Source of the DNA: an uncultured Thermus sp.
GTDB taxonomy: Bacteria > Deinococcota > Deinococci > Deinococcales > Thermaceae
Reading direction: 5' to 3'
DNA: 12,125 bases
Assembly (NCBI GenBank): GCA_947085095.1
Contig: CAMTVD010000023.1
Location: 1 to 12,125, forward strand
A program made the position numbers and the translations under genes. This document shows positions 1-12,125 of the stretch, piece after piece. The notes below the pieces were generated by a model. It made no database searches, was not told the DNA's origin, and worked only from the letters and a program-made list of their open reading frames with translations. The number at the start of each line of letters is the position of its first letter. Within the stretch, counting starts at the first letter, position 1.

Positions 1-180
1 CTAGTAGGAGGCCTAGAGGGTTACTTCTGGGGTCTGGGCCATCTTCCGCTTTGGACTCGCCCCATCTATATCCTAGGGGGCCTTCTTCTGGCCATCCCCG
101 AAGGGACGACCAGCCTGATGGCTATCCTCCTGGTTCTCCTAGTGAGCGGATGGCTGTGGAGCAAGCGGAGGAAATTATGA
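1..180 (+). CDS. C-terminal fragment of a membrane protein, probably a TRAP transporter fused (4TM/12TM) permease; 5'-truncated by the window edge
   Basis: Not in the ORF track. Frame 1 is open from base 1: LVGGLEGYFWGLGHLPLWTRPIYILGGLLLAIPEGTTSLMAILLVLLVSGWLWSKRRKL*. It is hydrophobic with a basic tail, and the 'LEGY...L..W.R....GGLLL..P' pattern resembles TRAP fused permease C-termini. TGA is at 178-180. Confidence 0.65.
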   Translation, partial: LVGGLEGYFWGLGHLPLWTRPIYILGGLLLAIPEGTTSLMAILLVLLVSGWLWSKRRKL

Positions 181-419
181 TTCCCAAGAAGGTCATCTTT
201 CACCCAGACGGCACCTACAAGCCAGATTGGCGGCGGGAGGAGATCCCGCTTACCGAGGAGGACCTTCAGGCCATGTGGGCGAGGACGGGCGAGGTGCTGG
301 CTAGCATAGAAAGGCAGGAGAGGATGATCCGCCGCTTTTACCGCTTCCTCACTAAGCACTTCGCCCCCAAGGAGGTGCGGGATGGACTTCAGGATAGACG
401 AGGAGACGGCGGCGCTTAG
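177..419 (+). CDS. Hypothetical 80-aa protein (MIPKKVIFHPDG...RRGDGGA)
   Basis: ATG at 177 overlaps the upstream stop (ATGA), with SD GGAGG at 167-171. It is the 3' part of track ORF 51..419 and overlaps the next gene by 38 nt. No recognised family. Confidence 0.6.
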   Translation: MIPKKVIFHPDGTYKPDWRREEIPLTEEDLQAMWARTGEVLASIERQERMIRRFYRFLTKHFAPKEVRDGLQDRRGDGGA

Positions 420-1542
420 GGAGCGGGTGCGGGCCTTTGTAGAGGAGGCCGTCATCCCCCGCGAAGAGGAGGTGGCCCGGGACCTCGGGCGCATGGAGAG
501 GGTCCTGCGGGAGCTCCAGAGGGAGGCCAAGGCCAGGGGGCTCTTCCTGCCCCACATGCCCAAGGAGCTGGGCGGGCTCGGGCTCTCCTGGCGGCAGCTG
601 GCCGTGATCCTGGAGGAGGCGGGGCGGAGCCTCCTGGGTCCCCGGGCCCTCAACGCTGCCGCCCCGGACGAGGGCAACATGCACCTCCTCCACCGGGTGG
701 CCAACGAGGCCCAGAAGCGCCGCTACCTCTACCCCCTCCTCTCCGGGGAGGTGCGCAGCGGCTTTGCCATGACCGAGCCCATGGGAGCGGGAGCAGATCC
801 GAATCTCCTTAAGGCCACAGCCCGGCGCAAGGGGAGGGGCTTTGTGCTGGAAGGGCGGAAGTGGTACACCACCGGGGCCGAGGGGGCCGCCTTCTTCATC
901 GTCCTGGCCCGGGCGGAAGAGGGCCCCACCATGTTTCTGGTGGACCGGGATCACCCAGGCCTGAAGCTGGTCCGCACCATCCCCACCATGGACCACTGGA
1001 GCCCCGGTGGCCACGGGGAGATCCTCCTGGAAGGGTGCGAGGTAGGGGAGGAGGCGGTCTTGGGAGAGCCGGGCAAGGGCTTCCACTACGCCGAGCTCCG
1101 CCTCGACCCGGCCCGTCTCACCCACTGCATGCGCTGGTTAGGCGTGGGGGTGCGGGCCACGGAGCTGGCCCAGGCGTACGCCTTGAGGCGGGAATCTTTC
1201 GGAAAGAAGCTGGCGGAGCACCAGGGGGTGCAGTTCATGATCGCCGACAGCCACATGGAGCTGCACGCAGCCCGCCTCATGATCTGGCACGCCGCCTGGA
1301 AGCTGGACCGCGGGGATAGGATCCGCCACGAGGCCTCCATGGCCAAGGTCTTCGTGGCGGAGGCCGTGGGCCGGGCCGTGGACCGAGCGGTCCAGATCAC
1401 CGGCGGCCTGGGCATCAGCGAGGACATCCCCCTGTCCATCTTCTACCGCGAGGTCCGCCCCTTCCGCATCTACGACGGCCCCAGCGAGGTCCACCGGGCC
1501 AGCATCGGCAAGCGGGCCCTGTACAAGGGGCTAAGGCCATGA
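382..1542 (+). CDS. Acyl-CoA dehydrogenase family protein, ACAD10/ACAD11- or LvaC-like subgroup
   Basis: 386 aa with SD AAGGAGGT upstream. General ACAD motifs are FAMTEP..AGAD, GRKWYTTG and R..FGKKLAEHQGVQF.IAD. Subgroup-type motifs are APDEGNM, RLTHCMR and RIYDGPSEVH (Asp where classical ACADs have YEG). Confidence 0.95.
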   Translation: MDFRIDEETAALRERVRAFVEEAVIPREEEVARDLGRMERVLRELQREAKARGLFLPHMPKELGGLGLSWRQLAVILEEAGRSLLGPRALNAAAPDEGNMHLLHRVANEAQKRRYLYPLLSGEVRSGFAMTEPMGAGADPNLLKATARRKGRGFVLEGRKWYTTGAEGAAFFIVLARAEEGPTMFLVDRDHPGLKLVRTIPTMDHWSPGGHGEILLEGCEVGEEAVLGEPGKGFHYAELRLDPARLTHCMRWLGVGVRATELAQAYALRRESFGKKLAEHQGVQFMIADSHMELHAARLMIWHAAWKLDRGDRIRHEASMAKVFVAEAVGRAVDRAVQITGGLGISEDIPLSIFYREVRPFRIYDGPSEVHRASIGKRALYKGLRP

Positions 1543-2516
1543 GAGAAACGCTGGAGGCCGCCCTCAGGGAGCTCTTCGGACCGGGGGAGATTCTCGCCCT
1601 GAGGCGCCTTCCCGGCGGGGCCTCTAAGGAGGCCTGGGCCTTGGACTACCGCGTGGGGGAAGCGGTCCTGCCCCTGTTCCTCCGGCGGGCAGGAGGGGGA
1701 GTGATCTACTCGGGAACCCTGCCCCTGGCCCAGGAGTTCCACCTCCTGCAGGTGGCCCACGCCCACGGGGTGAGGGTGCCCAAGCCCCTGCACTACTTCC
1801 CCAGCCTGGAGGGCCGAGAGGCCTTCCTGATGGAGAGGCTGGAAGGGGAGTCCATCGGGGCCCGCATCGTCCGCCGGCCCGAGTACGCCGGGGTACGGGA
1901 GCGCCTCCCCGAGGCCATGGCCCGGGAGCTGGCCGCCATCCACAGCATCCCCCTTGCCGAGGTGGGCTTCCTTCCTCCCGCCGCCCAGCCCCCCTGGCAA
2001 GAAGCCATCGCCACCGCGTACCGCGACCTGGACGCCCTGGACGAACCCCATCCCGCCCTGGAGTGGGGGCTCCGCTGGCTCTCGCAAAACCCCCCGCCCC
2101 CTCGGCCCCCTGTGCTGGTGCACGGAGACTTCCGCATCGGCAACCTCCTCATCACCCCAGAGGAGCTCGTGGCCGTCCTGGACTGGGAGTTTGCCCACGT
2201 CGGCGATCCCCGCGAGGACCTCGCCTGGCCTCTGGTGCGGGCCTGGCGCTTCGGCGAGGACGCCAAGCGCCTGGGAGGGGTGGGGCACCTGGAACCCTTC
2301 CTTGCGGGGTACAACGCCCTCACGGGAAGGGAGGTCGTCCCGGAGGAGTTATTCTGGTGGGAGGTGCTGGGTAACATCCGCTGGGGCCTGGGGGCCCTCA
2401 AGCAGGCCAGGCGCCACCTGAAGGGGGAGGAGCGCAGTGTAGAGCTGGCCGTCCTGGGAAGGCTGGCCGCGGAGATGGAGTACGAGATCCTGGACCTCCT
2501 GGAACGCCATGGATAG
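1539..2516 (+). CDS. Aminoglycoside-phosphotransferase (APH)/choline-kinase-fold phosphotransferase, similar to LvaA or the ACAD10/11 kinase domain
   Basis: 325 aa with GGASKEAW glycine loop, catalytic HGDFRIGN, and DWEFAHVGDPREDLAW. ATGA overlap with the dehydrogenase gene. Confidence 0.93.
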   Translation: MRETLEAALRELFGPGEILALRRLPGGASKEAWALDYRVGEAVLPLFLRRAGGGVIYSGTLPLAQEFHLLQVAHAHGVRVPKPLHYFPSLEGREAFLMERLEGESIGARIVRRPEYAGVRERLPEAMARELAAIHSIPLAEVGFLPPAAQPPWQEAIATAYRDLDALDEPHPALEWGLRWLSQNPPPPRPPVLVHGDFRIGNLLITPEELVAVLDWEFAHVGDPREDLAWPLVRAWRFGEDAKRLGGVGHLEPFLAGYNALTGREVVPEELFWWEVLGNIRWGLGALKQARRHLKGEERSVELAVLGRLAAEMEYEILDLLERHG

Positions 2517-2859
2517 GCCCCGCCTCGAGGAACTCCTGGAAGCCGTGGGAGAATTCCTGGAAAGGGATTTCCTGCCCACGGTGGGCGATCCCAGGCTCCG
2601 CTTCCAGCTCCTGGTGGCCCTAAACGCCCTCGGCATCGCCCGGAGAGAACTGGCCCTGGGCGAGGCCCTGCGGCAGGAAGAGGCGGCGGAGCTGGAGGCC
2701 CTCCTGGGCCATGGGGGGGAACGGGAGGTCCTCCTAAGGGAGCTAGCCCAAAGGATCCGCCAGGGCCAGGCTCCCGAGGGCACCCTAGCCTTCCTCAAGG
2801 TCCATGTGAGGCGGAAACTCTTGGTGGCCAACCCCAAGTACCTGGAGCGCTACCCATGA
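2509..2859 (+). CDS. Small helical protein, DUF6285/LvaB-like phosphotransferase partner
   Basis: 116 aa, with N-terminal MDRP..EELLEAV.EFL, central RFQ..VA.NAL.I..REL and C-terminal KL.VANPKY. It lies directly after the APH gene with an 8-nt overlap. Confidence 0.75.
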   Translation: MDRPRLEELLEAVGEFLERDFLPTVGDPRLRFQLLVALNALGIARRELALGEALRQEEAAELEALLGHGGEREVLLRELAQRIRQGQAPEGTLAFLKVHVRRKLLVANPKYLERYP

Positions 2860-3500
2860 GGCGGCGCCTCCTCCTCCTGCGCCACGGGGAAGTGGACTAC
2901 TTCCCAGGAGGGCGGCCCGTCCCCCCGGAAGGGGTGGGCCTCACCCCCAAGGGCCGGGCCCAGGCGGAAGCTGTGGGGGAGCTCCTCCGGGAGGTTCCCC
3001 TGGACCGGGCGGTCCACTCCGGGCTCCGCCGAACCCAGGAAACCGCCGAGATCGTCCTCAAAGGCCGCCCCATCCCCTTGGAGGCCTGGCCCGCCTTCCA
3101 GGAAATCCGGCCCGGAAAGCTGAAGCAGCTGGAGGATCCCAAGCGGGCCTTCCTCCAGGCCTTTGCCCCAAGGGACCTCTCGGACCGCTTCCTGGGCGGG
3201 GAGCGCTATGGGGACTTCCTGGACCGGGTCCTCCCCGCCTACACCCGCCTCCTGGCCCAACCCTGGGACACCCTCCTCCTGGTGGCCCACGGCGGCGTGA
3301 TCCGGGCCATCCTCTCCTACGCCCTCACCGGCAAGCCCATCCTTTTGCCCTTCGAGGTCCACCCCTGTGGCCTCTCCGTCCTGGACATGGACGAAGAGAG
3401 GGCCTTCCTTCGCCTCCACAACCTCACCCCCTACGAGCTCCTCTCCCAGGAGCGCAGGACCACCATGGAAGCCCTCTGGGAGGCCTACTATGGGGGATAG
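2856..3500 (+). CDS. Histidine phosphatase (phosphoglycerate mutase-like) family protein
   Basis: 214 aa with LLRHGE (RHG motif), S.LRRTQETA, GGE and VAHGGVIRAIL. ATGA overlap with the previous gene. Confidence 0.93.
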   Translation: MRRRLLLLRHGEVDYFPGGRPVPPEGVGLTPKGRAQAEAVGELLREVPLDRAVHSGLRRTQETAEIVLKGRPIPLEAWPAFQEIRPGKLKQLEDPKRAFLQAFAPRDLSDRFLGGERYGDFLDRVLPAYTRLLAQPWDTLLLVAHGGVIRAILSYALTGKPILLPFEVHPCGLSVLDMDEERAFLRLHNLTPYELLSQERRTTMEALWEAYYGG

Positions 3501-3502
3501 GG

Positions 3503-3575
3503 GTCCTGGGACCGGGGCTCGGGATGATCCCCAACAGGACTATGAACCCCCCACCCCGCTGAGAGAGGGGGCATA
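3503..3575. terminator. Possible bidirectional terminator region between convergent operons (two imperfect hairpins)
   Basis: GTCCTG(3503-3508)/CAGGAC(3535-3540) enclose GGGG/CCCC. TATG..CCCCC/GGGGGCATA spans 3541-3575. There is no clear U-tract. Confidence 0.3.
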
Positions 3576-3585
3576 GGGCACCCCA

Positions 3586-4329
3586 TCAAAGGCCCAGGTA
3601 GGTTTTCTGAAACTGGACATCCCCCAATAGCTCCTGGGCAGGGCCCTGGCGCACCAGCCTGCCGTTGGAGAGGACATAGGCCCGGTCGGCCATAGCCAAG
3701 GCCCGGGCTGCCTCCTGCTCCACCAGGAGCACGGTAACCCCCTCCCCACGAATCCGCTGGATCTGCTCAAAGACCAGAGCCCGAACCTTGGGCGCCAGCC
3801 CGGTGGAGGGCTCGTCAACGGCCAGAAGCTTGGGCCGGGCCATGAGGGCCCGCCCCAAGGCCAGCATCTGCTGCTCCCCCCCAGAAAGGTCTCCAGCCCG
3901 CTGCCACCGCCTCTCGTACAACCTGGGAAAGAGCTCGTAGACGAAGGCCAGCTGCCGCCGCACCTCCCCTTTGGGAAGGAGAAGGCCGCCAGCGAGGAGG
4001 TTTTCCTCAACGGTGAGCTCCCTAAAAGGCCGCCGCCTCTCGGGGCACAAGACCAGGCCCAACCGGGCAATCTGATGGGGCAGAAGATGATCCACCCGCT
4101 GTCCCTGGAAGCGCACCTCCCCCTCGAGGCGGATCTCCCCAGCCTTGGTGCCCCGGTGGAGGTGGGCTTCAAGGCGCACTAGGCCGGATATGGCCCGGAG
4201 AAAGCTGGTCTTCCCCGCCCCGTTGGGACCCACCAGGCAGACGAGTTCCCCTTGGCGCACCTCCAGGTCCACCCCAAAGAGGATCTGAGCCTTGTCGTAG
4301 AGTAGGGAGAGGCCCCGGACCTCAAGCAT
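3586..4329 (-). CDS. LIV/HAAT-family ABC transporter ATP-binding protein (LivF-like)
   Basis: Walker A GPNGAGKT, signature LSGGEQQMLA, Walker B AVDEPSTGLAP, and LLVEQ. Start reassigned to ATG 4329 (MLEVRGLS, 247 aa), preceded by GGGGAGGGGG. Confidence 0.93.
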   Translation of the reverse strand: MLEVRGLSLLYDKAQILFGVDLEVRQGELVCLVGPNGAGKTSFLRAISGLVRLEAHLHRGTKAGEIRLEGEVRFQGQRVDHLLPHQIARLGLVLCPERRRPFRELTVEENLLAGGLLLPKGEVRRQLAFVYELFPRLYERRWQRAGDLSGGEQQMLALGRALMARPKLLAVDEPSTGLAPKVRALVFEQIQRIRGEGVTVLLVEQEAARALAMADRAYVLSNGRLVRQGPAQELLGDVQFQKTYLGL

Positions 4330-5086
4330 GAGCCCCCTCCCCCAGGTAGGCCTCCACGACCCTGGGGTCCCGGAGCACCTCCTCCGGACTCCCCTCTGCC
4401 AAAACCTCCCCAAAGTTCAACACCACCACCCGGTCCGCGATCCGGAAAAGCTCGGAAAGCTTGTGCTCAATGATGACCATGGCGCACCCCTCGCTGTGGA
4501 GGCGACCGAACCGCCCCCCTCTGCGGAGCCTGGCCAAGGATTTGGCCAAGAGTTCCGTTTCCACGGGGGTTAGCCCGGCAAAGGGCTCATCCAGGATCAG
4601 GAGCTCGGGCTCCGTAGCCAAAGCGCGGGCGATCTCCAGGCGCTTAAGCTCCCCCTGGGAAAGCACGGAGGCGGGCTCCTTGGCCTTGTCGGCAATGCCC
4701 ACAAACTCCAAGGCATCCAGGGCCCGGGCCTCGGCCCGCTTCACCCAGTCCCCGCGCCGCCCCCCGCGGGGCCCATAGGCGGCCACCAGGACGTTGGCGA
4801 TGACGGGAAGGCGCTTCAGGGGCCTGGGGTTCTGGAAGGTGGCGGCAAGGCCGAGCCGCACCCTTTCCCACGTGGGCAACCGGGTGATGTCCCGTCCCTG
4901 GAAGCGTACCCTCCCCTCATCGGGCAGGTGGATGCCCAGAAGAACCCGGAGGAGGGTGGTCTTCCCCGCCCCGTTGGGGCCAATGAGGCCCACGATCTCC
5001 CTTGACTTCACCCGGAAGTTCACCCTGTAGAGAGCCTGGAGTCCCCCGAAGCGCTTAGAGATCCCCTCGGCTTCAAGCAGATCCAT
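4322..5086 (-). CDS. LIV/HAAT-family ABC transporter ATP-binding protein (LivG-like)
   Basis: KRFGGLQAL, GPNGAGKTT, TFQ, LSQGELKRLEIARALA, LDEPFAGL, IEH and V.EAYLG. Start reassigned to ATG 5086 (MDLLEAEG, 254 aa) with SD GAGGAGG. Confidence 0.93.
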   Translation of the reverse strand: MDLLEAEGISKRFGGLQALYRVNFRVKSREIVGLIGPNGAGKTTLLRVLLGIHLPDEGRVRFQGRDITRLPTWERVRLGLAATFQNPRPLKRLPVIANVLVAAYGPRGGRRGDWVKRAEARALDALEFVGIADKAKEPASVLSQGELKRLEIARALATEPELLILDEPFAGLTPVETELLAKSLARLRRGGRFGRLHSEGCAMVIIEHKLSELFRIADRVVVLNFGEVLAEGSPEEVLRDPRVVEAYLGEGAHA

Positions 5087-6734
5087 CCTGCACCTCCTCA
5101 CGAAGCTCCCTCCGGGAAACCTTGCCCACGTCCGTCTTGGGGAGCTCCCCCCGGAACTCTATCTCCTTGGGAAGCTTGTAAGGGGCCAGGCGCTCGCTAA
5201 GGAAGGCCAGGAGGTCCTCTTCAGTCACCTTCCCCCGGGCCTCGGGCTCTAGGACCACATAGGCCTTGGGGTAAGCCCCCACCCTGGGATCGGGCACGCC
5301 CACCACGCCCGCTGCTTTGACCAGGGGGTGGGCCCTTAAGGCCTCTTCGATCTCGCGGGGGAAGACCGGCCGCCCCTTGTACTTGATCATGTCCTTAGCC
5401 CGGTCGTAGAAGTGGAAATATCCCTCCTCATCCATGCGCACCAAGTCCCCGGTACGGAAAAAGCGGATTCCTTGGTGCAGGAAAAAGCTCCGTGCGTTCT
5501 CGTCCTCCCGACGCCAATAGCCCCGGGTCACGTTGGGCCCAAAGAGGGCCAGCTCCCCCACCTCCCCCACGGGCACGGGGTCCAGAGTATCCGGGTCTAC
5601 CACCAGGGCCTGGATACCGGGCAGGGGGATGCCGAAGGAACCCCGCTTCACCCGCTCCCTGGGGTTGATATGGCTCACGGAGGTGGTCTCCGTCATGCCA
5701 TAGCCCTCAGCGATCTCCCGGCCCGTCCTCCGGGCAAAGGTCTCAGCCGTGGCCTCGTGCAGGGCGTCCGCTCCGCTCACCACCACCGCAAGCCGCCGCC
5801 AGTCCACCCAGTGGGCCTTAGGATGGTCCCTTAGTACCTCGTAAAGCGAGGGCACGCCGAAAAAGTGGGTAGCCCGGTAGCGGACCATGGCCTCGAGGAT
5901 CCAGTCAGGATCGGGAGTGGAAAAGACGATCAGCCTGGCCCCAGACAGCAACCCCCCGAGGAGGAGAACCACCTGTCCGTAGATGTGGTAGAAGGGCAGA
6001 AAGGCGAGGATGGTGTTCTCGCTCCCAAAGGGGTTTAGGCTTTGGATCATCCGGTGGGCAGCCAGGATGTTGCCATGGGTAATCTCCACGCCCTTGGGTA
6101 GGCCTGTGGTGCCCCCGGTGTAGGGAAGGGCGGCCAGGTCCTCCGCAGAGCGGGAAACGGGAGCCCGCAGGGGCTCGCCCCTAAGCAGGTGGGCGAAGGG
6201 GTAGGTCCCCGCCCCCTGGGGAACAGGCAACCCCCGCACCAGAAGCTGTTGCCAGACGGGTAAGGCCTCCTTGAGGGAGACCACTACCGTGGCCTCCAGC
6301 TCTACCCTTGTCCGGCGCGCCGTTTCAAAGAGGGCGTCTTGGACCACCAGGAACCGCGCCCCAGAATCCCTAAGCTGGTGGGCAAGCTCGTGGGAGGTGT
6401 AGAGGGGGCTCACAGGCACCACCACTCCACCTGCCCACAGTATGCCTAGGTAGGCGATGGCGAACTGGGGGCTGTTGGCCAGGTAAAGGCCCACCCGGTC
6501 CCCGGGCCTCAGGCCCAGGGCCTGAAGCCCCCCGGCAAAGCGCTGGGCGGCCTCGAGGAGCTCCCCGTAACGGTAGGCCCGCCCGTAGTAGAGGATGGCC
6601 ACCGAACGCTCCCACCTCCGGAAGGCCTCCGCTACCCATTCGCCCACGCTCCCCTGACCCGGCTCTACCTGCGAAGGAGTCCCCGGAGGATAGAAGCGGG
6701 TCCAGGGGCGTTCCAGATAAAGGGCCTCGGTCAC
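5073..6734 (-). CDS. Acyl-CoA synthetase / long-chain-fatty-acid--CoA ligase (ANL adenylation family)
   Basis: 553 aa with AMP-binding YTGGTTGLPKG, EGYGMTET, FRTGDL, DRAKDMIK and LPKTDVGKVSRR. GTG start overlaps the livM-like stop. Confidence 0.95.
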   Translation of the reverse strand: MTEALYLERPWTRFYPPGTPSQVEPGQGSVGEWVAEAFRRWERSVAILYYGRAYRYGELLEAAQRFAGGLQALGLRPGDRVGLYLANSPQFAIAYLGILWAGGVVVPVSPLYTSHELAHQLRDSGARFLVVQDALFETARRTRVELEATVVVSLKEALPVWQQLLVRGLPVPQGAGTYPFAHLLRGEPLRAPVSRSAEDLAALPYTGGTTGLPKGVEITHGNILAAHRMIQSLNPFGSENTILAFLPFYHIYGQVVLLLGGLLSGARLIVFSTPDPDWILEAMVRYRATHFFGVPSLYEVLRDHPKAHWVDWRRLAVVVSGADALHEATAETFARRTGREIAEGYGMTETTSVSHINPRERVKRGSFGIPLPGIQALVVDPDTLDPVPVGEVGELALFGPNVTRGYWRREDENARSFFLHQGIRFFRTGDLVRMDEEGYFHFYDRAKDMIKYKGRPVFPREIEEALRAHPLVKAAGVVGVPDPRVGAYPKAYVVLEPEARGKVTEEDLLAFLSERLAPYKLPKEIEFRGELPKTDVGKVSRRELREEVQDGSA

Positions 6735-7801
6735 GCTACCACCTCCTTCTCAGGAAGGCGCAACTCCACCCCACAGGCCCGGCAGCGCCTGCGGGTGAAA
6801 GCGTTGCGCACCTTGCACCTGGGACACGTCTCCTCCAGGCGGTCCAAAACCCCCCGCACCACCCCTTGGGGCAGGAAGCGCATCACCAGCAGGATCAAGA
6901 AAGCGAAGGCCACCATCCGCACCTCCTCAACCACTCGGAGAAACTCCAAAAGGGGGAAGAGGAGGAAGGTGCCCGCCACGGGGCCGTAGATGGTAGCCAG
7001 CCCCCCGAAAACCGACCAGACGATGGGCTGAATGGAGTTGAAGACGGAGAGGCTGTCCGGCCCCACCACCCGCAGGAAGTGGGCGTGGAGACCTCCAGCG
7101 AGGCCAGCGAAGAAGGCGCTGGCCCCAAAGGCCAAAAGCTTGTAGCGCACGGTGTTCACCCCCACCATGCGCACCGCCACCTCACCCTCGCGGATGGCGT
7201 GTAGGAAGAGGCCGATCCGGGATCCGCCAAGCTTCCAGAGAAACAAGGTGGAGAGGAGAAAGGTGAACACCACGATGTAGTACTCCTGCAGGCGGCTCTG
7301 CCCCAGCCGGGGCAGGCCGGAAAGGCCCAGCTCACCCCCCGTGATCTTGGGAAAGACGAAAACGAGGCCCAGGGCGATGATGGGAAAGGCCAGGGTAACG
7401 AGGGAAAGGTAAGGTCCCCGGACCCTTAAGGACGGGAGGCCAACGAAGACTCCCGCCAGCGCAGCCAGAGAAGCCCCCAAGGGCACAGTAAGCCAGGGGG
7501 GAAGGCCCAGCTCCCGCCCTAAGATGGCCGAAACGTACCCGGAAAGACCGAAAAAGAAGGCGTGTCCCAGGCTCACCTGGCCCGTGTAGCCGGAAAGCAG
7601 GTCCCAGCTAGCGGCATAAAGTGCGAAGATGGCCGTGAGGGTTAGGACGCGGAGCCAGTAGGGATCCTGGGTAAAGAGCGGCAAAACCAACAGAAAAAGG
7701 ACGAACAGGAGGGCCACACTCCGCCCGGGCAAGGCCAGAACCTCATGCCTAAGGTAGAGGAAAATCCAGGGTAGGGACCAAACCCGCAAAGGACCGGTCA
7801 T
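6731..7801 (-). CDS. LIV/HAAT-family ABC permease (LivM-like) with a C-terminal four-cysteine zinc-ribbon-like tail
   Basis: SWDLLSGYTGQVSLGHAFFFG, LRVRGPYLSLVTLAF, TGGELGL, S.IG..L.AIRE.E.A...GVN and GG.ATIYGP..G. The tail reads CPRCKVRNAFTRRRCRACG. Confidence 0.93.
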   Translation of the reverse strand: MTGPLRVWSLPWIFLYLRHEVLALPGRSVALLFVLFLLVLPLFTQDPYWLRVLTLTAIFALYAASWDLLSGYTGQVSLGHAFFFGLSGYVSAILGRELGLPPWLTVPLGASLAALAGVFVGLPSLRVRGPYLSLVTLAFPIIALGLVFVFPKITGGELGLSGLPRLGQSRLQEYYIVVFTFLLSTLFLWKLGGSRIGLFLHAIREGEVAVRMVGVNTVRYKLLAFGASAFFAGLAGGLHAHFLRVVGPDSLSVFNSIQPIVWSVFGGLATIYGPVAGTFLLFPLLEFLRVVEEVRMVAFAFLILLVMRFLPQGVVRGVLDRLEETCPRCKVRNAFTRRRCRACGVELRLPEKEVVA

Positions 7802-8661
7802 CGCTCCTCCGCAAAGCCCACGCCGAAAAGGCCCTCTGGCCTAGCCACCAGGACCAAGACCATGATGAAAAGGGCCACCGCAGTCCGCAGAAAGGCCCCC
7901 CCTGGAACAAGGTTGATCACCAAAACCTCGGCAAAGGCCAGGACCAAGGCCCCCGAAAGGGCTCCGGGAAGGCTACCCAGCCCCCCCAGGACCACCGCGG
8001 CCAGGACCACCAGGAGGGGAGGGTTCCACATGTGGGGCTCGAGGGTGGCCATGGGAGCCACGGCCAAGCCCGCCAGAGCTGCCAGCAAGGCCCCTAGGCC
8101 CACGGCCCAGTACCCGGCACGGGAGAGGCTTATGCCCACGAGCTCCGCCGCCTCCTGGTCCTGGGCTGCGGCCCGGATCCCAAGGCCGAGCCGCGTTCCC
8201 TTCAGGAGGGCCCACGCGGCCAAAAGCACTGCGGCAGCGAAGCCCAGGGCCAGAAGGGCCTGCTGGGCCACCCGCACCCCCAGGACCTCCACGTACCCGG
8301 GAAGGAGGGCGGGCACAGAGCGAAAGTGCCCCCCAAAGAGAAGGAGGACCACCTCCTGCAGGAGGAGGGCTAGGGTGATGGTGACGATGAGCACTGTGGC
8401 CTCGTGCTCCCTCAGGGGCTCGAGGAGGAGCCCGTAGGCGGCCAGGGCCAGGAGGAGAACAATGAGAACCCCGAGGAGAGCTGCCCCAGCGAAGCCCGTC
8501 CACCCCAGGAAGAAGAAAAGGGCGTAGGCGGCCACCATGTAGAAGGCCGTGTGGGCCAGGTTCAGGATCCGGGCCACCCCGTAGGTGAGGGCGAACCCCA
8601 GAGCCAGCATCCCGTAGATGCCGCTCAGGACTAGGCCGTTGACCAGGATGGCTGCGAGCAT
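7798..8661 (-). CDS. LIV/HAAT-family ABC permease (LivH-like)
   Basis: NGL..SGIYG.LALGF.L.YG..RILNLAH, TRLG.GIRA.AQD.EAA.L.GI, VVLGGLGSLPGA and RPEGLFG. Confidence 0.95.
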   Translation of the reverse strand: MLAAILVNGLVLSGIYGMLALGFALTYGVARILNLAHTAFYMVAAYALFFFLGWTGFAGAALLGVLIVLLLALAAYGLLLEPLREHEATVLIVTITLALLLQEVVLLLFGGHFRSVPALLPGYVEVLGVRVAQQALLALGFAAAVLLAAWALLKGTRLGLGIRAAAQDQEAAELVGISLSRAGYWAVGLGALLAALAGLAVAPMATLEPHMWNPPLLVVLAAVVLGGLGSLPGALSGALVLAFAEVLVINLVPGGAFLRTAVALFIMVLVLVARPEGLFGVGFAEER

Positions 8662-9963
8662 CTACCGCCTCCAGGCCTCCACCACCCAGGGGGGCAGCTG
8701 GTAGGGGCGCACGCCCGCATAGCTGATCACCTTGTCCCCCACCCGCCAGTTGCGAGGCCAGAAGGCCTGCATGCGGTTGCCCACCCACTGGACCCCAAGC
8801 CCGGTGGTGAAGCCAGGACCCCAGGTGACATCGTGCGTTTTGTCAAAGACAAGCCGGCCGGAAGGACCCACAAAATCGGTGGCCTCCAGGGCCTTGACCA
8901 CCGCCTCCACATCCAGGGTGCCAGCCCGGTTCAGGGCATCCGCAAGGATGTAGAGGGCCCCGTAGGCTCCGCTGGCGGTGTAGATGGGGAACTCCTTGAA
9001 ACGAGCCTGGAAGCTGGTGATGAAGGGGATGGTCTTGGGGGTGATGGCCACGCCCGGAGCCAGGGTACTGAGGGTGGCCACGTAGTTCCCCAGGTTATCC
9101 GTGGCCTTGAGCCAGGTCTCCTGCTGGGCTTCCACGTTGATGCCCACAGGGGCGGCGGGGATCCTCAGGCGTCCCCAGTCACGCCCGAAGGGAACCCCTA
9201 CAGGGCCGGAGAGGACCGTGTAGATCACCTGGGCCCCGGCGCGCTGGATGGCGGTGAGCTCCGAGGTGACATCGGTCGCCACCGCCGAAGGCCGCCAGGT
9301 CCCCGCCACTTCGGCCCCATACCCCTGGGGCGGGGGTGCGGCGATAAGCCGGGTGGCCGTCTCCACCAGCGGATCGGCCCAGGCCGCCCGTTCGGCCAGG
9401 ATGGCCACCTTGGGCCGCTGAATGCCAAGCTGCTGCCGCACCGCCTGGACCACCTCGCTTAGGAGTAGGAGAGAGGTGCGGGCCAGGTCGCTGGACCTGG
9501 TGGGGCTTACGCGGAAAAGGTACTTGAAGCGGTCGTAGTTCCGGTCCACACGGCCGGTGAGGATCCCGTCCAAGCCCGCACCCGTGATGATGAAGATCCT
9601 CTTGTAGTCCGCCGCCACCTCGGTCATGGCCAGGACCGCCTCACTCCGGAAGCCCCCAACAAGGAAGTCCACGCGCTGGGCGGTGATAGCCCGCTCCACG
9701 GCGGTAGCCGCATCGGTTACGCTCAGCATCTCGTTGGTATCCACCCTTAGTAGCTCAACGCGGTAGCGTCTGTCCCCCACCTGGATGCCCCCGGCGCGGT
9801 TGATCTCCTCCGCGGCCAGAGTGGCTCCGTACCACATATGGGCCCCCTGCACGAAGGCCATGGGTCCCACTACGCCAATCCTTAGGGTCTGGGCCCAAGC
9901 CAGCGAGGTTAGGACAGCTAAACCCCCGAGCGTAAGCCACTTGAACATCACTATCCTTAACAT
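8662..9963 (-). CDS. LIV/HAAT-family ABC substrate-binding protein (periplasmic binding protein type I)
   Basis: Signal peptide ending LTSLAWA|Q, followed by LRIGVVGP, GA.LA.EEIN.AGGI and F.GPSG.L.FD. Start placed at ATG 9963 (433 aa) after a GGGGGGAG SD, because the track start at 10071 lies at the promoter itself. ATG 9948 is an alternative. Confidence 0.9.
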   Translation of the reverse strand: MLRIVMFKWLTLGGLAVLTSLAWAQTLRIGVVGPMAFVQGAHMWYGATLAAEEINRAGGIQVGDRRYRVELLRVDTNEMLSVTDAATAVERAITAQRVDFLVGGFRSEAVLAMTEVAADYKRIFIITGAGLDGILTGRVDRNYDRFKYLFRVSPTRSSDLARTSLLLLSEVVQAVRQQLGIQRPKVAILAERAAWADPLVETATRLIAAPPPQGYGAEVAGTWRPSAVATDVTSELTAIQRAGAQVIYTVLSGPVGVPFGRDWGRLRIPAAPVGINVEAQQETWLKATDNLGNYVATLSTLAPGVAITPKTIPFITSFQARFKEFPIYTASGAYGALYILADALNRAGTLDVEAVVKALEATDFVGPSGRLVFDKTHDVTWGPGFTTGLGVQWVGNRMQAFWPRNWRVGDKVISYAGVRPYQLPPWVVEAWRR

Positions 9964-10040
9964 CCTTAGCTCCCCCCTTCTAAGCCAGGTGTTCCGCCAA
10001 AGACTCTGACCGTCTTCCAGACGGACTCGTTGGGCGAAGT

Positions 10041-10056
10041 TACCGACTAGTCGGTC
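10041..10056. promoter_or_regulatory. TetR-type operator (PfmR-like box) for the ABC/ligase operon
   Basis: TACCGACTAGTCGGTC contains the perfect 14-bp palindrome ACCGACTAGTCGGT (10042-10055). It has 2 mismatches to the T. thermophilus PfmR consensus TACCGACCGNTNGGTN (recalled from literature) and lies just downstream of the predicted start site. Confidence 0.75.
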
Positions 10057-10071
10057 GGGACGGTTGAGCAT

Positions 10072-10100
10072 AGGTTAACCCCTCAACCCCGAAGTGTCAA
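10072..10100 (-). promoter_or_regulatory. Sigma-A promoter of the ABC/ligase operon
   Basis: On the minus strand: TTGACA (10100-10095), 17-nt spacer, TAACCT (10077-10072). Confidence 0.8.
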
Positions 10101-10195
10101 GAGGGGGCGCAGCTGAGCCCTCATCACTTTGAGGGCCGGGGCTTGACAAGGGGAAAAGAAGAGGGGGGGTTAGTAAGGTGTGCAACCCTGGGGTA

Positions 10196-10409
10196 GGGGC
10201 CCCAAAGAGGAAGGGTTCCGGGACCTGAAGGGGCAGGGGTTTGGCTTGGACCGGCACCGGCTCAGGACGGGGGCGAGCCTTAGGGGGTGGTTGTGGCTTC
10301 TGGCGTTGGGGGTGGTGCTCTTGCTTCTCCTTGGGGCCGGTTTGCGGGGCAAGGAATGGCTTACCCACCTCCTGGCCCATCCCGAGCGGCAGAGCCTCTT
10401 TGGGGCCCC
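10196..10409. repeat. Perfect 15-bp inverted repeat pair inside the IS remnant
   Basis: GGGGCCCCAAAGAGG (10196-10210) and CCTCTTTGGGGCCCC (10395-10409). The match extends to 19/21 over 10190-10210 and 10395-10415. Confidence 0.85.
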
Positions 10410-10533
10410 CTCCCCCCAAATGAACTGCTTCCGCCTGGCCCGGATCGCCCTGGCCCAGGGGCCCCCGCCCTGGCGGGAAGCGGTGGTGGTGGGGCTGGCC
10501 AGGTTGCTTCAGGAGCTGGGAGGGGGCAAGTGA
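10207..10533 (+). pseudogene. IS4-family transposase, C-terminal remnant
   Basis: EEGFRDLK.QGFGLD...L matches the IS4 '(Y..R..I)EE.FRD.K' region, followed by a hydrophobic helix and R.SLF/FRLA. The N-terminal DDE core is absent. Confidence 0.8.
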
Positions 10534-10556
10534 TGAGAGGTCAGACAGGCCCCACC

Positions 10557-10586
10557 TTGACAGGAGATAGCCGAGGGGCTTAATAT
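10557..10586 (+). promoter_or_regulatory. Sigma-A promoter of the serine hydrolase gene
   Basis: TTGACA (10557-10562), 18-nt spacer, TAATAT (10581-10586). Confidence 0.75.
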
Positions 10587-10597
10587 GGCCTCAATTC

Positions 10598-10613
10598 TAC
10601 CGAACGGTCGGTA
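10598..10613. promoter_or_regulatory. TetR-type operator (PfmR-like box) for the serine hydrolase
   Basis: TACCGAACGGTCGGTA. Its reverse complement TACCGACCGTTCGGTA fits TACCGACCGNTNGGTN exactly, and it sits immediately downstream of the -10 box. Confidence 0.8.
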
Positions 10614-10625
10614 AGGAGGTGAGGG

Positions 10626-10715
10626 ATGGGCCCAGGTCGCCAACACCGAACTCCGCCTGAACCAGTCGAGGCAAGGGCCCCTAGCGTCCGCAGCATCCCT
10701 CCAGCAACCTTTTAG
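10626..10715 (+). other. Possible 29-aa upstream ORF or degraded gene remnant (MGPGRQHRTPPEPVEARAPSVRSIPPATF*)
   Basis: Strong SD TAAGGAGGTGA (10612-10622) precedes ATG 10626. The TAG stop (10713-10715) overlaps the hydrolase SD TAGGAGGTGA. Confidence 0.35.
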
Positions 10716-10728
10716 GAGGTGATGTAAG

Positions 10729-11970
10729 GTGAAGGGTAAAACTTGGATCACCCTTGGGTTCCTCCTGAGCTTGGCCTTAGCCCAGGTCCAGGAGGGGGTG
10801 GACTTAAGCCGGCTCGCCGCCTTCAAGGCCCACCTCGAGGCTGAGGTGGACCAGGGCAGGCTCCCCGGGGCGGTATTCTTGGTGGCCCGAAACGGCCGGG
10901 TGGTCCTCCACGAGGCCGTGGGGTACCTGGATCCCACGACCAAGGCCTCCATGTCCAAAGAGGCCATCTTCCGGGTTTACTCCATGACAAAGCCCCTGAC
11001 CTCGGTCTTAACCTTGCAGATGGTGGAGGAAGGGAGGCTTTTCCTTACCGACCCCATCGCCCTCTACCTCCCTGAGTTCCGGGACCTCAGGGTAGGGGTA
11101 GAGAAGTCCCAAGATGGGAGATCCGTGCTGGAGCTTGCCCCCGCGCCAAGGCCCATCACCATCTACGACCTCCTGCGCCACACCTCTGGAATAACCTACG
11201 GGATCTTCTTTGATTCCCTGGTTAAGCAGGAATACCGCAAGGTAGGGGTGGACGCTGTAGACCAGACCCCGGAGGAGTTCCTCAGCAAGCTCGCCCGCCT
11301 TCCCCTCCAGTTTTCACCAGGCTCGGTGTGGGAGTACGGTAACTCCACGGACCTCCTGGGCCACCTCCTGGAAAAGATAGCGGGGAAAAGCCTCGCCGAG
11401 CTCATGGCAGAGCGCATCTTCAAACCCCTGGGAATGGCCGATAGCGGCTTCCAGGTGCCTAAGGAGAAGTGGCAACGGATCGCCGAGCCCTTCCGTCAGG
11501 ACCCCTTTACCCGAAGCCCCACCCCTCCAGCCCTCAACATCCGAGAACCCCCCAAGCGTTACTCGGGGGGTGCGGGAGCCGTGGCCACAGCCTTGGACTA
11601 CTACCGCTTTCTCCAGGCCCTCCTGAATGGGGGGGAGCTTGCAGGTAAGCGCATCCTCTCTCGCAAGAGCGTGGAGCTCCTCACTCGGGATCACCTTGGA
11701 CCCCTCTATCTCCCCTCCCTACAGCGGGGAGGCCCCTACCTCCCGGGCCCAGGGTACGGTTTCGGCCTAGGTGTGGCCGTACGCCTTTCCGAGGGAGGCA
11801 GTCCCCTTCCGGGATCGGCGGGAGACTACTTCTGGGCAGGGCTTTTCGGCACTTACTTCTTCGTGGACCCCAAGGAGCGGCTCGTGGGCATTTACATGAT
11901 GCAGAATCCCGGAGGGCGCACCTACTACGCCCAGCTCTTTAGGAACGCAGTCTACGCCAGTTTGCGCTGA
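10729..11970 (+). CDS. Secreted serine hydrolase, beta-lactamase class C-like fold (family VIII esterase-like)
   Basis: 413 aa with GTG start and SD AGGAGG. Sec signal peptide MKGKTWITLGFLLSLALA|Q, catalytic SMTK (SxxK, 10981-10992), LLRHTSG, PG..WEYGNSTD (catalytic Tyr) and WAG..GT.F.VDP. Confidence 0.93.
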   Translation: MKGKTWITLGFLLSLALAQVQEGVDLSRLAAFKAHLEAEVDQGRLPGAVFLVARNGRVVLHEAVGYLDPTTKASMSKEAIFRVYSMTKPLTSVLTLQMVEEGRLFLTDPIALYLPEFRDLRVGVEKSQDGRSVLELAPAPRPITIYDLLRHTSGITYGIFFDSLVKQEYRKVGVDAVDQTPEEFLSKLARLPLQFSPGSVWEYGNSTDLLGHLLEKIAGKSLAELMAERIFKPLGMADSGFQVPKEKWQRIAEPFRQDPFTRSPTPPALNIREPPKRYSGGAGAVATALDYYRFLQALLNGGELAGKRILSRKSVELLTRDHLGPLYLPSLQRGGPYLPGPGYGFGLGVAVRLSEGGSPLPGSAGDYFWAGLFGTYFFVDPKERLVGIYMMQNPGGRTYYAQLFRNAVYASLR

Positions 11971-11985
11971 TGGGAAGGCTTTCCG

Positions 11986-12125
11986 GGGTCGTGTCAAGAG
12001 TTATGTGTAAGAGTCTGTGTACGGGGGGCATACCGCTCCTGAAGCATCTTCTCCAGCACCTCCTTCACCTCCGAGAACCCCTTTAGTTTCCGTTCTGCCC
12101 ACCTCCCTTCCTGCCTCTCCGACTC
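11986..12125 (-). mobile_element. IS256-family insertion sequence, transposase-3' end (continues beyond the window)
   Basis: Terminal sequence GG(G)TCGTGTCAAGAGTTATGTGTAA resembles IS256-family ends, and the transposase stop lies within it. The exact first base is uncertain by 1-2 nt. Confidence 0.8.
11994..12125 (-). CDS. IS256-family transposase C-terminus (partial)
   Basis: Not in the ORF track. Minus-strand translation is ESERQEGRWAERKLKGFSEVKEVLEKMLQERYAPRTQTLTHNS*. The W..R...GF pattern and the 'LTH.' ending inside the terminal repeat are typical of IS256 transposases. Confidence 0.8.
   Translation of the reverse strand, partial: ESERQEGRWAERKLKGFSEVKEVLEKMLQERYAPRTQTLTHNS

Follow-up and report, generated by a model that had tools for sequence, protein, structure and literature searches.

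Whether a kinase gene, an atypical acyl-CoA dehydrogenase (ACAD) gene, an ATP-binding cassette (ABC) importer operon and a hydrolase gene that lie side by side in a Thermus genome serve one catabolic route is the question raised by the stretch of DNA analysed here. This stretch (the window) is the entire 12,125-bp contig C23 of an uncultured Thermus genome (G000; 2.08 Mb, 41 contigs, ~67% G+C). Rand et al. reportedly described, in 2017, the levulinate operon lvaABCDE of Pseudomonas putida KT2440, and a preliminary description had read the window as a candidate complete pathway for 4-hydroxy or 4-oxo acids with enzymes of the Lva type. Combining an open reading frame (ORF) listing with Pfam and NCBIfam scans of the window, we located all of the genes which that description had named. 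With moderate confidence, we read the window as the middle of a modular regulon, under a PfmR-type repressor, for the uptake and Lva-route degradation of 4-hydroxy/4-oxo carboxylic acids. The predicted core mechanism, 4-phosphorylation of the LvaA/LvaB type followed by elimination of the LvaC type, is well supported because of the defining residues and the comparison with a Pseudomonas lva-type operon. The proposed link of the Lva genes to the importer and the esterase is supported because the units share an operator that matches the literature and cluster repeatedly in different layouts.

The ACAD gene (382-1542, + strand) was identified by Pfam and NCBIfam matches and by its signature residues. 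Among solved structures, it scores best with 4hr3 (226 bits) and with the ACAD11 of mouse (219 bits) and human (200 bits); MCAD reaches 167 bits, and the conventional Thermus ACAD 2dvl still reaches 210 bits. In excerpts of PMC12440821, the ACAD11 subgroup is defined by the catalytic aspartate D753 plus R626 and H634-C-M-R637, which hold the 4-phosphate, a set described there as common only to ACAD10 and LvaC. Residues R240, R245, H248-C249-M250-R251 and D365 of the window protein align with R626, R631, H634-R637 and D753 of mouse ACAD11, and D365, within RIYDGPSEVH, occupies the catalytic-Asp column, where the D753N mutant chain 8v3v has Asn. None of the subgroup residues is found in 2dvl, which reads YEGTSE at the catalytic column. 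The complete pattern is present in 28 of 92 representative relatives (340-460 aa), including most of the top-scoring matches, and its columns are invariant in a 19-sequence alignment (A3) whose 18 other rows were selected for having the pattern.

For comparison beyond Thermus, species-representative genomes were scanned with an alignment of ACADs carrying the HCMR motif, which returned 80 loci from many phyla, among them a Pseudomonas sp. locus (L044) that served as the Pseudomonas reference. The window ACAD is 51% identical to the ACAD at the lvaC position of L044. All of the subgroup-defining residues are present in the ACAD that the preliminary description had called atypical, which places it by sequence in the LvaC/ACAD10/ACAD11 subgroup and predicts an FAD-dependent enzyme that eliminates phosphate from 4-phosphoacyl-CoA.

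The kinase gene (1539-2516, + strand; Pfam APH, 126 bits) encodes an APH-fold protein with the catalytic residues H195-G-D197, N202 and D215-W-E217, invariant in 10/10 Thermus orthologs. Aligned with the lvaA-position kinase of L044 (L044:7536-8594), it shows 39% identity across 310 residues and scores 190 bits, compared with 45 bits for the ACAD11 kinase and 61 bits for 9o56, perhaps the bacterial kinase structure of a bioRxiv preprint on alkylglycerols. These features predict an LvaA-type 4-hydroxyacyl-CoA 4-kinase.

Overlapping the kinase stop (2509 vs 2516) is the start of a gene for a 116-aa DUF6285 protein (2509-2859, + strand), which fits the ~12 kDa size of LvaB and which we take as the LvaB-like partner. 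It scores 79.3 bits against PF19802 (cut-off 28.1 bits), as the lvaB-position protein of L044 does with 71.9 bits, the pairwise identity of the two being only 30% (E 0.01). A model of the kinase-DUF6285 complex reached an ipSAE of 0.88 in 3/3 runs, the best of three controls reaching 0.00, with a contact agreement of 100% and a partner pLDDT of 92. Of 157 solved complexes, 116 attain the score mark applied here, as do 2 of 215 mismatched pairs; these counts apply only roughly, as the alignments were custom-made. The modelled contacts, which include kinase residues 169-179 in the invariant stretch before the catalytic loop, support binding of the predicted pair.

The distribution of DUF6285 follows the kinase subtype. 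Of the 80 ACAD-type loci, 33 have an APH gene within 9 kb of the ACAD. DUF6285 is found in 9 of the 11 loci whose APH scores at least 160 bits to the window kinase, one of the two exceptions lying at a contig edge, and in 0 of 22 loci with an ACAD10-like APH (<80 bits to the window kinase). Thus DUF6285 appears to be a partner of LvaA-type kinases, which fits the requirement for LvaB in KT2440 and its pull-down with LvaA, as quoted in excerpts of PMC6692424. Kinase, small partner and ACAD together carry the sequence hallmarks of LvaA/LvaB/LvaC and ACAD10/11, as the preliminary description had proposed.

Last in this gene set is a branch 1 histidine phosphatase (2856-3500, + strand; Pfam His_Phos_1, 139 bits) with an RHG motif (R9-H10-G11) and the second histidine H154. 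Its gene directly follows the DUF6285 gene in 13/13 Thermus loci examined, and a histidine phosphatase also occurs in 2 of the 80 ACAD-type loci. No solved structure matched it at E values up to 1e-10. It probably strips phosphate from stalled or wrong 4-phospho intermediates, either 4-phosphoacyl-CoA or 4-phospho acid. Throughout 382-3500, starts and stops of the four + strand genes (ACAD, APH, DUF6285, His_Phos_1; hereafter the Lva unit) overlap.

These genes do not begin an operon of their own. The final 141 nt of another contig, C26, are identical to window 1-141; this segment was also considered as the end of an insertion sequence (IS), which was rejected in favour of the overlap with C26. 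A 654-aa TRAP permease ORF with Pfam DctM and NMT1_3 matches runs from C26:8611 to window 180, so that the window opens with the 3' end (DctM domain) of a fused TAXI-TRAP permease gene (1-180, + strand; stop TGA 178-180), and the stretch from C26 into the window is contiguous in a 95%-identical relative (G020). An ATGA overlap joins the permease gene to a small conserved ORF of 80 aa (177-419, + strand), which has its own ribosome-binding site (RBS; GGAGG, 6 nt upstream) and overlaps the ACAD start. Orthologs of this ORF (64-96% identity; 80-104 aa in the relatives) stand before the ACAD gene in 9 of the 11 loci from relatives, and it is absent where the ACAD directly follows a short-chain dehydrogenase/reductase (SDR) gene (L011, L012). 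It gave no Pfam match and no atlas match at or above 0.9. A listed 138-aa ORF, open at its 5' end (3-419), had no family match and is better read as the permease tail, in another frame, plus the 80-aa ORF. The resulting order is PfmR box, TAXI binding protein, TRAP permease, small ORF, LvaC, LvaA, LvaB and histidine phosphatase. Given the C26 overlap and the overlapping starts and stops, the Lva genes therefore come last in an operon of eight genes that begins behind a PfmR-type box, and the TAXI-TRAP system is the transporter most directly coupled to them.

At the other end, the window breaks off in an IS insertion (11979-12125). An 8-bp target duplication, CTTTCCGG (window 11979-11986 = C7:138-145), with inverted ends stands 9-16 nt past the esterase stop, followed by an IS end (11987-12125) that is multi-copy in G000 and many relatives and at which several contigs break. 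Contig C7 from 138 to 10402 matches the sequence found directly after the esterase in G020, with genes for an SDR, a 116-aa ORF, a 4HBT thioesterase, a 536-aa ligase and a 254-aa SDR. By this match, the IS separates the esterase from the putative SDR, 4HBT, LvaE-like ligase and LvaD-like SDR genes of C7, and it may disrupt the start of the C7 SDR. The best matches in G000 to the SDR (lvaD) and ligase (lvaE) of L044 are adjacent genes on C7 (C7:3254-3997, 40%; C7:1659-3215, 36%). The window thus does not hold the complete pathway that the preliminary description had suggested; its Lva operon starts on C26, and the best LvaE- and LvaD-like genes lie on C7.

Convergent on the Lva unit is the ABC importer operon on the - strand. 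It encodes a periplasmic binding protein with a signal-peptide-like N-terminus (8662-9963; Peripla_BP_6), LivH-like (7798-8661) and LivM-like (6731-7801) permeases, both matching BPD_transp_2, an AMP-forming acyl-CoA ligase of 553 aa (5073-6734; AMP-binding, 320 bits, plus AMP-binding_C), and LivG-like (4322-5101) and LivF-like (3586-4329) ATPases. Both ATPases match ABC_tran and BCA_ABC_TP_C and score under the curated cut-offs for LivG (190 bits) and LivF (221 bits). The binding protein reaches 41 bits against the NCBIfam LivJ-type model, whose cut-off is 477, and its best solved relative, at only 37 bits, gives no clue to a ligand. Only the membrane and ATPase parts of the importer are Liv-like by these scores, and the predicted binding protein is not LivJ/K-like. 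The label of branched-chain amino acid transporter is as doubtful as had been suspected, the binding protein being far from LivJ/K. A terminator scan of the window found 7 sites vs 10.8 expected, none of them between the convergent operons.

The ligase gene sits between the permease and ATPase genes of this operon. The best match of its product in the Protein Data Bank (PDB) is FadD-1 (3g7s, 277 bits), the others being generic malonyl and feruloyl ligases that give no clue to a substrate. The preliminary description was right that the importer operon holds an acyl-CoA ligase; as an LvaE counterpart, that ligase (31% identical to the lvaE-position ligase of L044) is a weaker match than the ligase on C7 (36%).

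The hydrolase gene (10729-11970, + strand; Pfam Beta-lactamase, 230 bits) encodes a protein with S85-M-T-K88 (S-x-x-K) and W369-A-G (W-x-G) motifs, whose best PDB matches are the carboxylesterases 4ivi (320 bits) and 7pp3 (284 bits). Entries 4ivi and 4ivk, titled only 'carboxylesterase', are presumably EstU1. Against the NCBIfam model bla_class_C the protein scores 46 bits (cut-off 415) and is not a class C beta-lactamase. Fold and motifs identify it as a predicted family VIII carboxylesterase. Its N-terminus resembles a Sec signal ending in ALA|Q, which is conserved in 3/3 orthologs examined by eye (A-x-A|Q). The enzyme is predicted to be exported and would open lactones or esters outside the cytoplasm. 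Of 31 other genomes in the genus, 29 have a paralog of the esterase (52-56%), and the copy in G000 (C22:100175-101233) is without a signal-like N-terminus. In G007 (L010 6151-7954), one such paralog is preceded by a PfmR-type box and an SDR gene and faces the Lva unit in convergent orientation.

A common operator had been proposed for the hydrolase and importer promoters, and the window does hold two copies of TACCGA-N4-TCGGTA, one with a single mismatch at 10041-10056 and an exact one at 10598-10613. By shuffling the window, 0.15 sites are expected, and 3 of 200 shuffles had two or more. Both boxes lie 11-15 nt 3' of a TTGACA-17-TAnnnT promoter-like site. The importer promoter (10041-10100, - strand) has a -35 element TTGACA at 10100-10095, a 17-nt spacer, a -10 element TAACCT at 10077-10072 and a PfmR-type box that reads GACCGACTAGTCGGTA at 10056-10041. 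The esterase promoter (10557-10613, + strand) has TTGACA at 10557-10562, TTAATAT at 10580-10586 and, 11-12 nt past the latter, the box at 10598-10613, which reads TACCGACCGTTCGGTA on the reverse strand. Excerpts of PMC7022988 give the consensus of PfmR (TTHB023) of Thermus thermophilus HB8 as 5'-TACCGACCGNTNGGTN-3', with PfmR sites there also covering the transcription start. The 10598-10613 box fits TACCGACCGNTNGGTN at 13/13 specified positions on the reverse strand, and the 10041-10056 box at 11/13. The listed 469-aa ORF of the binding protein starts too early, the signal-peptide-like N-terminus running from M37 or M42, and with this start the operator falls in the promoter and 5' leader and not in coding sequence.

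A box occupies the equivalent position before the importer in 9/9 relatives' loci examined (L004-L008, L101, L103, L104, and L098 for the shared divergent region). Genome-wide, there are four sites with at most one mismatch, the two in the window plus C26:7493 and C38:18730, and all lie just after promoter-like sites of related operons. The C26 box directly follows a TTGACA-type promoter and precedes the TAXI binding protein and fused TRAP permease genes. The C38 box lies 20 nt before a TetR gene (C38:18750-19322), followed by ACAD, MaoC hydratase and SDR genes; with 312 bits to PDB 3vpr and 79% identity to the TetR protein encoded in an HB8-type locus (L012), this TetR is identified by sequence as the PfmR ortholog of G000, its own gene preceded by the operator. 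Importer and esterase thus appear to be under one PfmR-type repressor. The FadR box TTRNACYNRGTNYAA, allowing one mismatch, was not found in the window and was found only in L012, L016 and L017.

Other features lie around these promoters. The importer 5' leader holds a hairpin (CCGTC-TGGAA-GACGG; 10005-10031, - strand) between operator and RBS; it has no Rfam match, and at gathering thresholds the entire window has none. A 28-codon ORF (10625-10711) with a strong RBS (AAGGAGGTGA) separates the esterase operator from the start of the esterase gene and could be a leader peptide or a remnant of a rearrangement that removed TetR and ACAD genes from the esterase promoter. The two promoters are separated by an insert of ~230 bp (10188-10419), not in the 95%-identical G020, with a weak match to a DDE transposase (E 6e-4) and copies in G003 and G009. 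At the equivalent position, G008 and G016 have a PfmR-type TetR gene. The listed ORFs 10075-10419 and 10509-10967 had no family matches in the Pfam and NCBIfam scans.

Contigs from four hot-spring metatranscriptome runs, from four studies, are 95-99% alike the window. They span the whole importer operon (e.g. 3276-10188 and 3459-10033), one of them running from 253 to 10057, and others cover the esterase to 11986 before continuing into non-IS sequence. One contig (X1) skips 10213-10422, indicating that near relatives in hot springs are also without the ~230-bp insert. Another (X2) runs into adapter letters at 10057, beside the importer start predicted here, which is a weak hint of a transcription start. 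Parts of 406-3240 have no or low cover in X1, X3 and X5, and the contigs cannot rank expression. What they establish is presence in libraries of near relatives, and not levels, strands or single transcripts.

The three units also recur together in relatives, although not uniformly. Among 67 other genomes of the family, which are not independent and whose counts are given without a statistical test, orthologs of the kinase were found in 15, of the importer binding protein in 10 and of the esterase in 7. The importer is present in 7/7 esterase genomes, and the kinase in 7/10 importer genomes and 5/7 esterase genomes. The preliminary description had called for co-occurrence of all three units; esterase orthologs were always accompanied by the importer, and both cluster recurrently with the other parts, while co-occurrence of kinase and importer is partial. 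Its view that the units are linked by more than proximity gains from the shared PfmR-type operator, the HB8 pfmR operon and the clustering in several arrangements.

These arrangements differ from genome to genome. Within ~26 kb, G078 holds the Lva unit, a box-TAXI-TRAP set, a box-TetR-ACAD-esterase-SDR-MaoC-4HBT-ligase-SDR set and the importer. The Lva unit stands in tandem upstream of the importer in G076. In G008 the order is importer, box, divergent TetR, ACAD, full esterase (82%), SDR, MaoC, ligase and SDR, a different replicon carrying the Lva unit; G056, of another genus, has the importer and the pfmR/esterase operon without Lva. G018 shows box, ACAD, MaoC and Lva unit. The unit there looks decayed (L011, G018:C4, 9722-11863), with a truncated or frameshifted Lva-type ACAD and one TAG in the kinase frame. 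In 7 of the 13 Thermus genomes examined, the Lva unit has a divergently oriented PaaK-like ligase as its neighbour, and in 5 of those 7 the ligase is followed by an SDR and a paralogous Liv importer (27-44% identity). Outside the phylum, Liv-type importers lie near an HCMR-type ACAD in one Halorubrum locus, one Gaiellaceae locus and two loci from Betaproteobacteria. The Gaiellaceae metagenome-assembled genome (L082, 2553-10188) has an HCMR-type ACAD divergent from APH, DUF6285, SDR, histidine phosphatase and LivGFHM genes, and the Halorubrum locus (L078, 254-10179) has a binding protein, LivHMGF, a ligase and an SDR adjoining APH and ACAD.

Several observations weigh against a PfmR-type regulon for 4-hydroxy/4-oxo acids. 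Its RNA evidence consists of contigs only, L044, an operon of the same order, stood in for the KT2440 LvaA/B/C sequences, and it is from sequence that we infer the substrate (lactone, ester, 4-oxo or 4-hydroxy acid), the activities and the induction. The four operator sites in the genome are not above chance, as 1-kb block shuffles gave a mean of 2.4 and at least four in 43 of 200. Since shuffles give similar counts, genome-wide rarity was rejected as evidence, and the weight of the operator therefore lies in its location, its conservation and its match to the published site. In six genomes where the PaaK-like ligase adjoins the Lva unit, no operator matching at 10/12 positions or better stands directly before that unit. 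The kinase was not found in 3 of the 10 importer genomes (G016, G056, G080), nor the importer in 8 of the 15 kinase genomes. The Lva unit is on another contig or replicon than its proposed partners in G008, G009 and G010, and the layout in which it converges on the importer occurs only in G000 and the 95%-identical G020, in a region marked by IS activity. This partial co-occurrence, the separate contigs and the restricted layout, together with the IS after the esterase and the IS-like insert of 230 bp at 10188-10419, would also fit a neighbourhood that is an accident of IS-driven rearrangement, with Lva unit, importer and esterase functionally independent. We consider such an accident improbable, as the same parts recur together in at least four arrangements (G000/G020, G076, G078 and the HB8-type L012), the units share an operator, and the esterase ortholog never occurs without the importer (7/7).

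Also to be weighed is the residue next to the alpha-C Glu of the kinase, where ACAD11 (R86), 9o56 and 3dxp have R-E and the window kinase has Q65-E66, so that the CoA-contacting Arg of ACAD11 is replaced by Gln. Gln is also found in the Pseudomonas lvaA-position kinase, and the Arg is thus a feature of the ACAD10/11 subtype that the LvaA subtype does not share. That kinase and phosphatase act on lipids and not on acyl-CoAs, for example by phosphorylating 1-O-alkylglycerols and dephosphorylating lipid phosphates, could be argued from a preprint, seen in excerpt, in which several prokaryotic ACAD10-kinase homologs phosphorylate chimyl alcohol (bioRxiv 10.1101/2025.09.10.675409), and from the phosphatase that the Lva unit carries, as ACAD10 carries a HAD domain. 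It is very improbable given that the kinase scores far higher with the lvaA-position kinase (190 bits) than with 9o56 (61) or ACAD11 (45), has an LvaB-type partner that is absent with ACAD10-type kinases (0/22), and is encoded among CoA ligases and CoA-ester enzymes. A broader challenge comes from the published view of the PfmR and FadR regulons as phenylacetate and general fatty-acid degradation (PMC7022988 and PMC5597230, in excerpt). The locus could accordingly belong to a general regulon for beta-oxidation of fatty or aromatic acids. Its importer would then carry ordinary fatty or branched acids that the esterase releases from lipids, and ACAD and kinase would contribute only a side activity, e.g. 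clearing oxidised lipids. HB8 TTHB017-012 are under FadR, in a regulon described in excerpts of PMC5597230 as fatty-acid degradation, and the PfmR targets are described in those of PMC7022988 as phenylacetate and fatty-acid genes; the cluster has a conventional ACAD, MaoC hydratase, SDRs and a 4HBT thioesterase; and G016 and G056 have importer and esterase without the kinase. We regard this as somewhat unlikely, because LvaE-D-C-A-B are contiguous in the HB8-type layout, with members that are the best genome-wide matches to the Pseudomonas lva-type operon, and because the Lva unit of G000 appears to share one operon with a dedicated TRAP transporter. The general and the Lva readings can both hold, since 4-hydroxy acids are modified fatty acids.

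In the preferred reading, a PfmR-type regulon for Lva-route degradation, extracellular cleavage of an ester, oligo-ester or lactone by the esterase may first yield a 4-hydroxy or 4-oxo acid, and the TRAP system, the ABC system or both would import it. The candidates for making the CoA thioester are the LvaE-like ligase of C7 and the ligase of the ABC operon. The LvaD-like SDR on C7 would reduce a 4-oxo group, the LvaA/LvaB pair would phosphorylate the 4-hydroxyl, and the LvaC-type flavoenzyme would eliminate the phosphate to give 2-enoyl-CoA, for which the conventional ACAD, MaoC hydratase, SDRs and thiolase would complete beta-oxidation. An acyl-CoA intermediate probably releases the PfmR-type repressor. 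We also put forward, tentatively, a wider possibility: a mobile, re-assorting supercluster that leads from ester to beta-oxidation, in which one acyl-CoA-sensing repressor would govern an esterase harvesting 4-hydroxy/4-oxo acids from hot-spring lactones and oligo-esters, two unrelated high-affinity importers each with a ligase, a complete LvaEDCAB set, and a phosphatase acting as proofreading device or safety valve for 4-phosphoacyl-CoA. If this were true, the 'fatty acid/phenylacetate' operon under PfmR and FadR in HB8 would be reassigned to 4-substituted acids, and DUF6285 would be an obligatory partner of LvaA-type, not ACAD10-type, kinases.

These results suggest a testable function for the published but functionally vague PfmR/FadR regulon (TTHB023-012) of the model thermophile HB8. 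They propose names for genes now labelled aminoglycoside kinase, hypothetical protein, phosphoglycerate mutase, branched-chain amino acid transporter and beta-lactamase, tie Pfam DUF6285 to the role of LvaB, and distinguish two kinase subtypes, LvaA-type with the partner and ACAD10-type without it. A full-text literature search, with subscription journals and supplements outside it, returned no paper on 'DUF6285', none proposing a 4-hydroxy-acid role for TTHB012-015, and, among the matches listed, none linking Thermus with levulinic acid, 4-hydroxyvalerate or gamma-valerolactone. As parts for the conversion of levulinate, gamma-valerolactone and 4-hydroxy acids, heat-stable LvaEDCAB enzymes would be useful, and so would the esterase and the pair of high-affinity importers. 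The recurring histidine phosphatase raises the question of how cells handle 4-phosphoacyl-CoA, which is also the question for the HAD domain of ACAD10.

Compared with known systems, the esterase resembles the family VIII carboxylesterases 4ivi and 7pp3 in its beta-lactamase fold, S-x-x-K nucleophile motif and W-x-G motif, and differs from them in sitting in an acyl-CoA catabolic regulon. With mammalian ACAD10 and ACAD11, the Thermus system shares the ACAD active-site signature (equivalents of R626, R631, HCMR and D753; PMC12440821 and PMC11342911, in excerpt) and the two-step chemistry of 4-phosphorylation then elimination, which for Thermus is predicted from sequence. In contrast to both, its kinase and ACAD are separate proteins and the kinase is of the LvaA subtype with a DUF6285 partner, and where ACAD10 has a HAD domain Thermus has a histidine phosphatase.

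The likeness to the lva system of P. putida KT2440 is closer, comprising an APH-fold kinase, a ~12-kDa partner right behind it and an ACAD with the catalytic Asp and HCMR (excerpts of PMC6692424, PMC11342911 and PMC12440821), together with an LvaD-like SDR and an LvaE-like ligase in the same Thermus regulon, which are contiguous as E-D-C-A-B in the HB8-type layout. KT2440 locus tags imply the order lvaR|lvaABCDE (PMC6692424, in excerpt), as in L044, where a PrpR/sigma-54 regulator is divergent from APH (352 aa), DUF6285 (118 aa), ACAD (390 aa; HCMR, DGP), SDR (255 aa) and ligase (564 aa) genes. Thermus differs in its C-A-B order, in having TetR-type repressors (PfmR, FadR) and not the sigma-54 activator LvaR, in adding a histidine phosphatase and a small ORF, and in including an exported esterase in the regulon. 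Its transport would rely on TAXI-TRAP and Liv-type ABC systems and not on LvaF/G, and it is a thermophile of another phylum with 30-51% identity to the Pseudomonas lva-type operon L044. A histidine phosphatase family gene also lies inside the levulinate-induced lva cluster of P. citronellolis LA18T, which is reported without lvaB in excerpts of PMC6692424, whereas Thermus has both the DUF6285 partner and the phosphatase.

The closest comparison is with T. thermophilus HB8 itself. Its operon TTHB023 (pfmR)-TTHB014 ends in a putative acyl-CoA dehydrogenase and a phosphotransferase, both up ~3.2-3.6-fold in a pfmR mutant (PMC7022988 Table 5, in excerpt), and TTHB017-012, under FadR, encode a ligase, an SDR, an ACAD, a phosphotransferase, a hypothetical protein and a PGM-family protein (PMC5597230 Table 2, in excerpt). 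The HB8-type layout is seen in L012 (G015:C3), with LvaE-D-C-A-B contiguous, and in G015 the Liv importer was not found. In L012, the first ACAD gene and the SDR gene flank a 176-aa remnant of the C-terminal part of the esterase (11505-12035), 87% identical to window residues 283-413; by position, this remnant matches a gene listed as a hypothetical protein in excerpts of PMC7022988. The excerpts of PMC7022988 and PMC5597230 do not propose the 4-hydroxy-acid function suggested here. G000 differs from HB8 in that its Lva genes are detached from the pfmR operon and joined to a TRAP transporter operon, and in that its esterase is full length, whereas the HB8-type layout holds the remnant. The two nevertheless share orthologous genes (71-91% identity to L012), the same operator sequence and the same repressor family, and the ACAD, kinase, DUF6285 protein and phosphatase of the window correspond to HB8 TTHB015, 014, 013 and 012.

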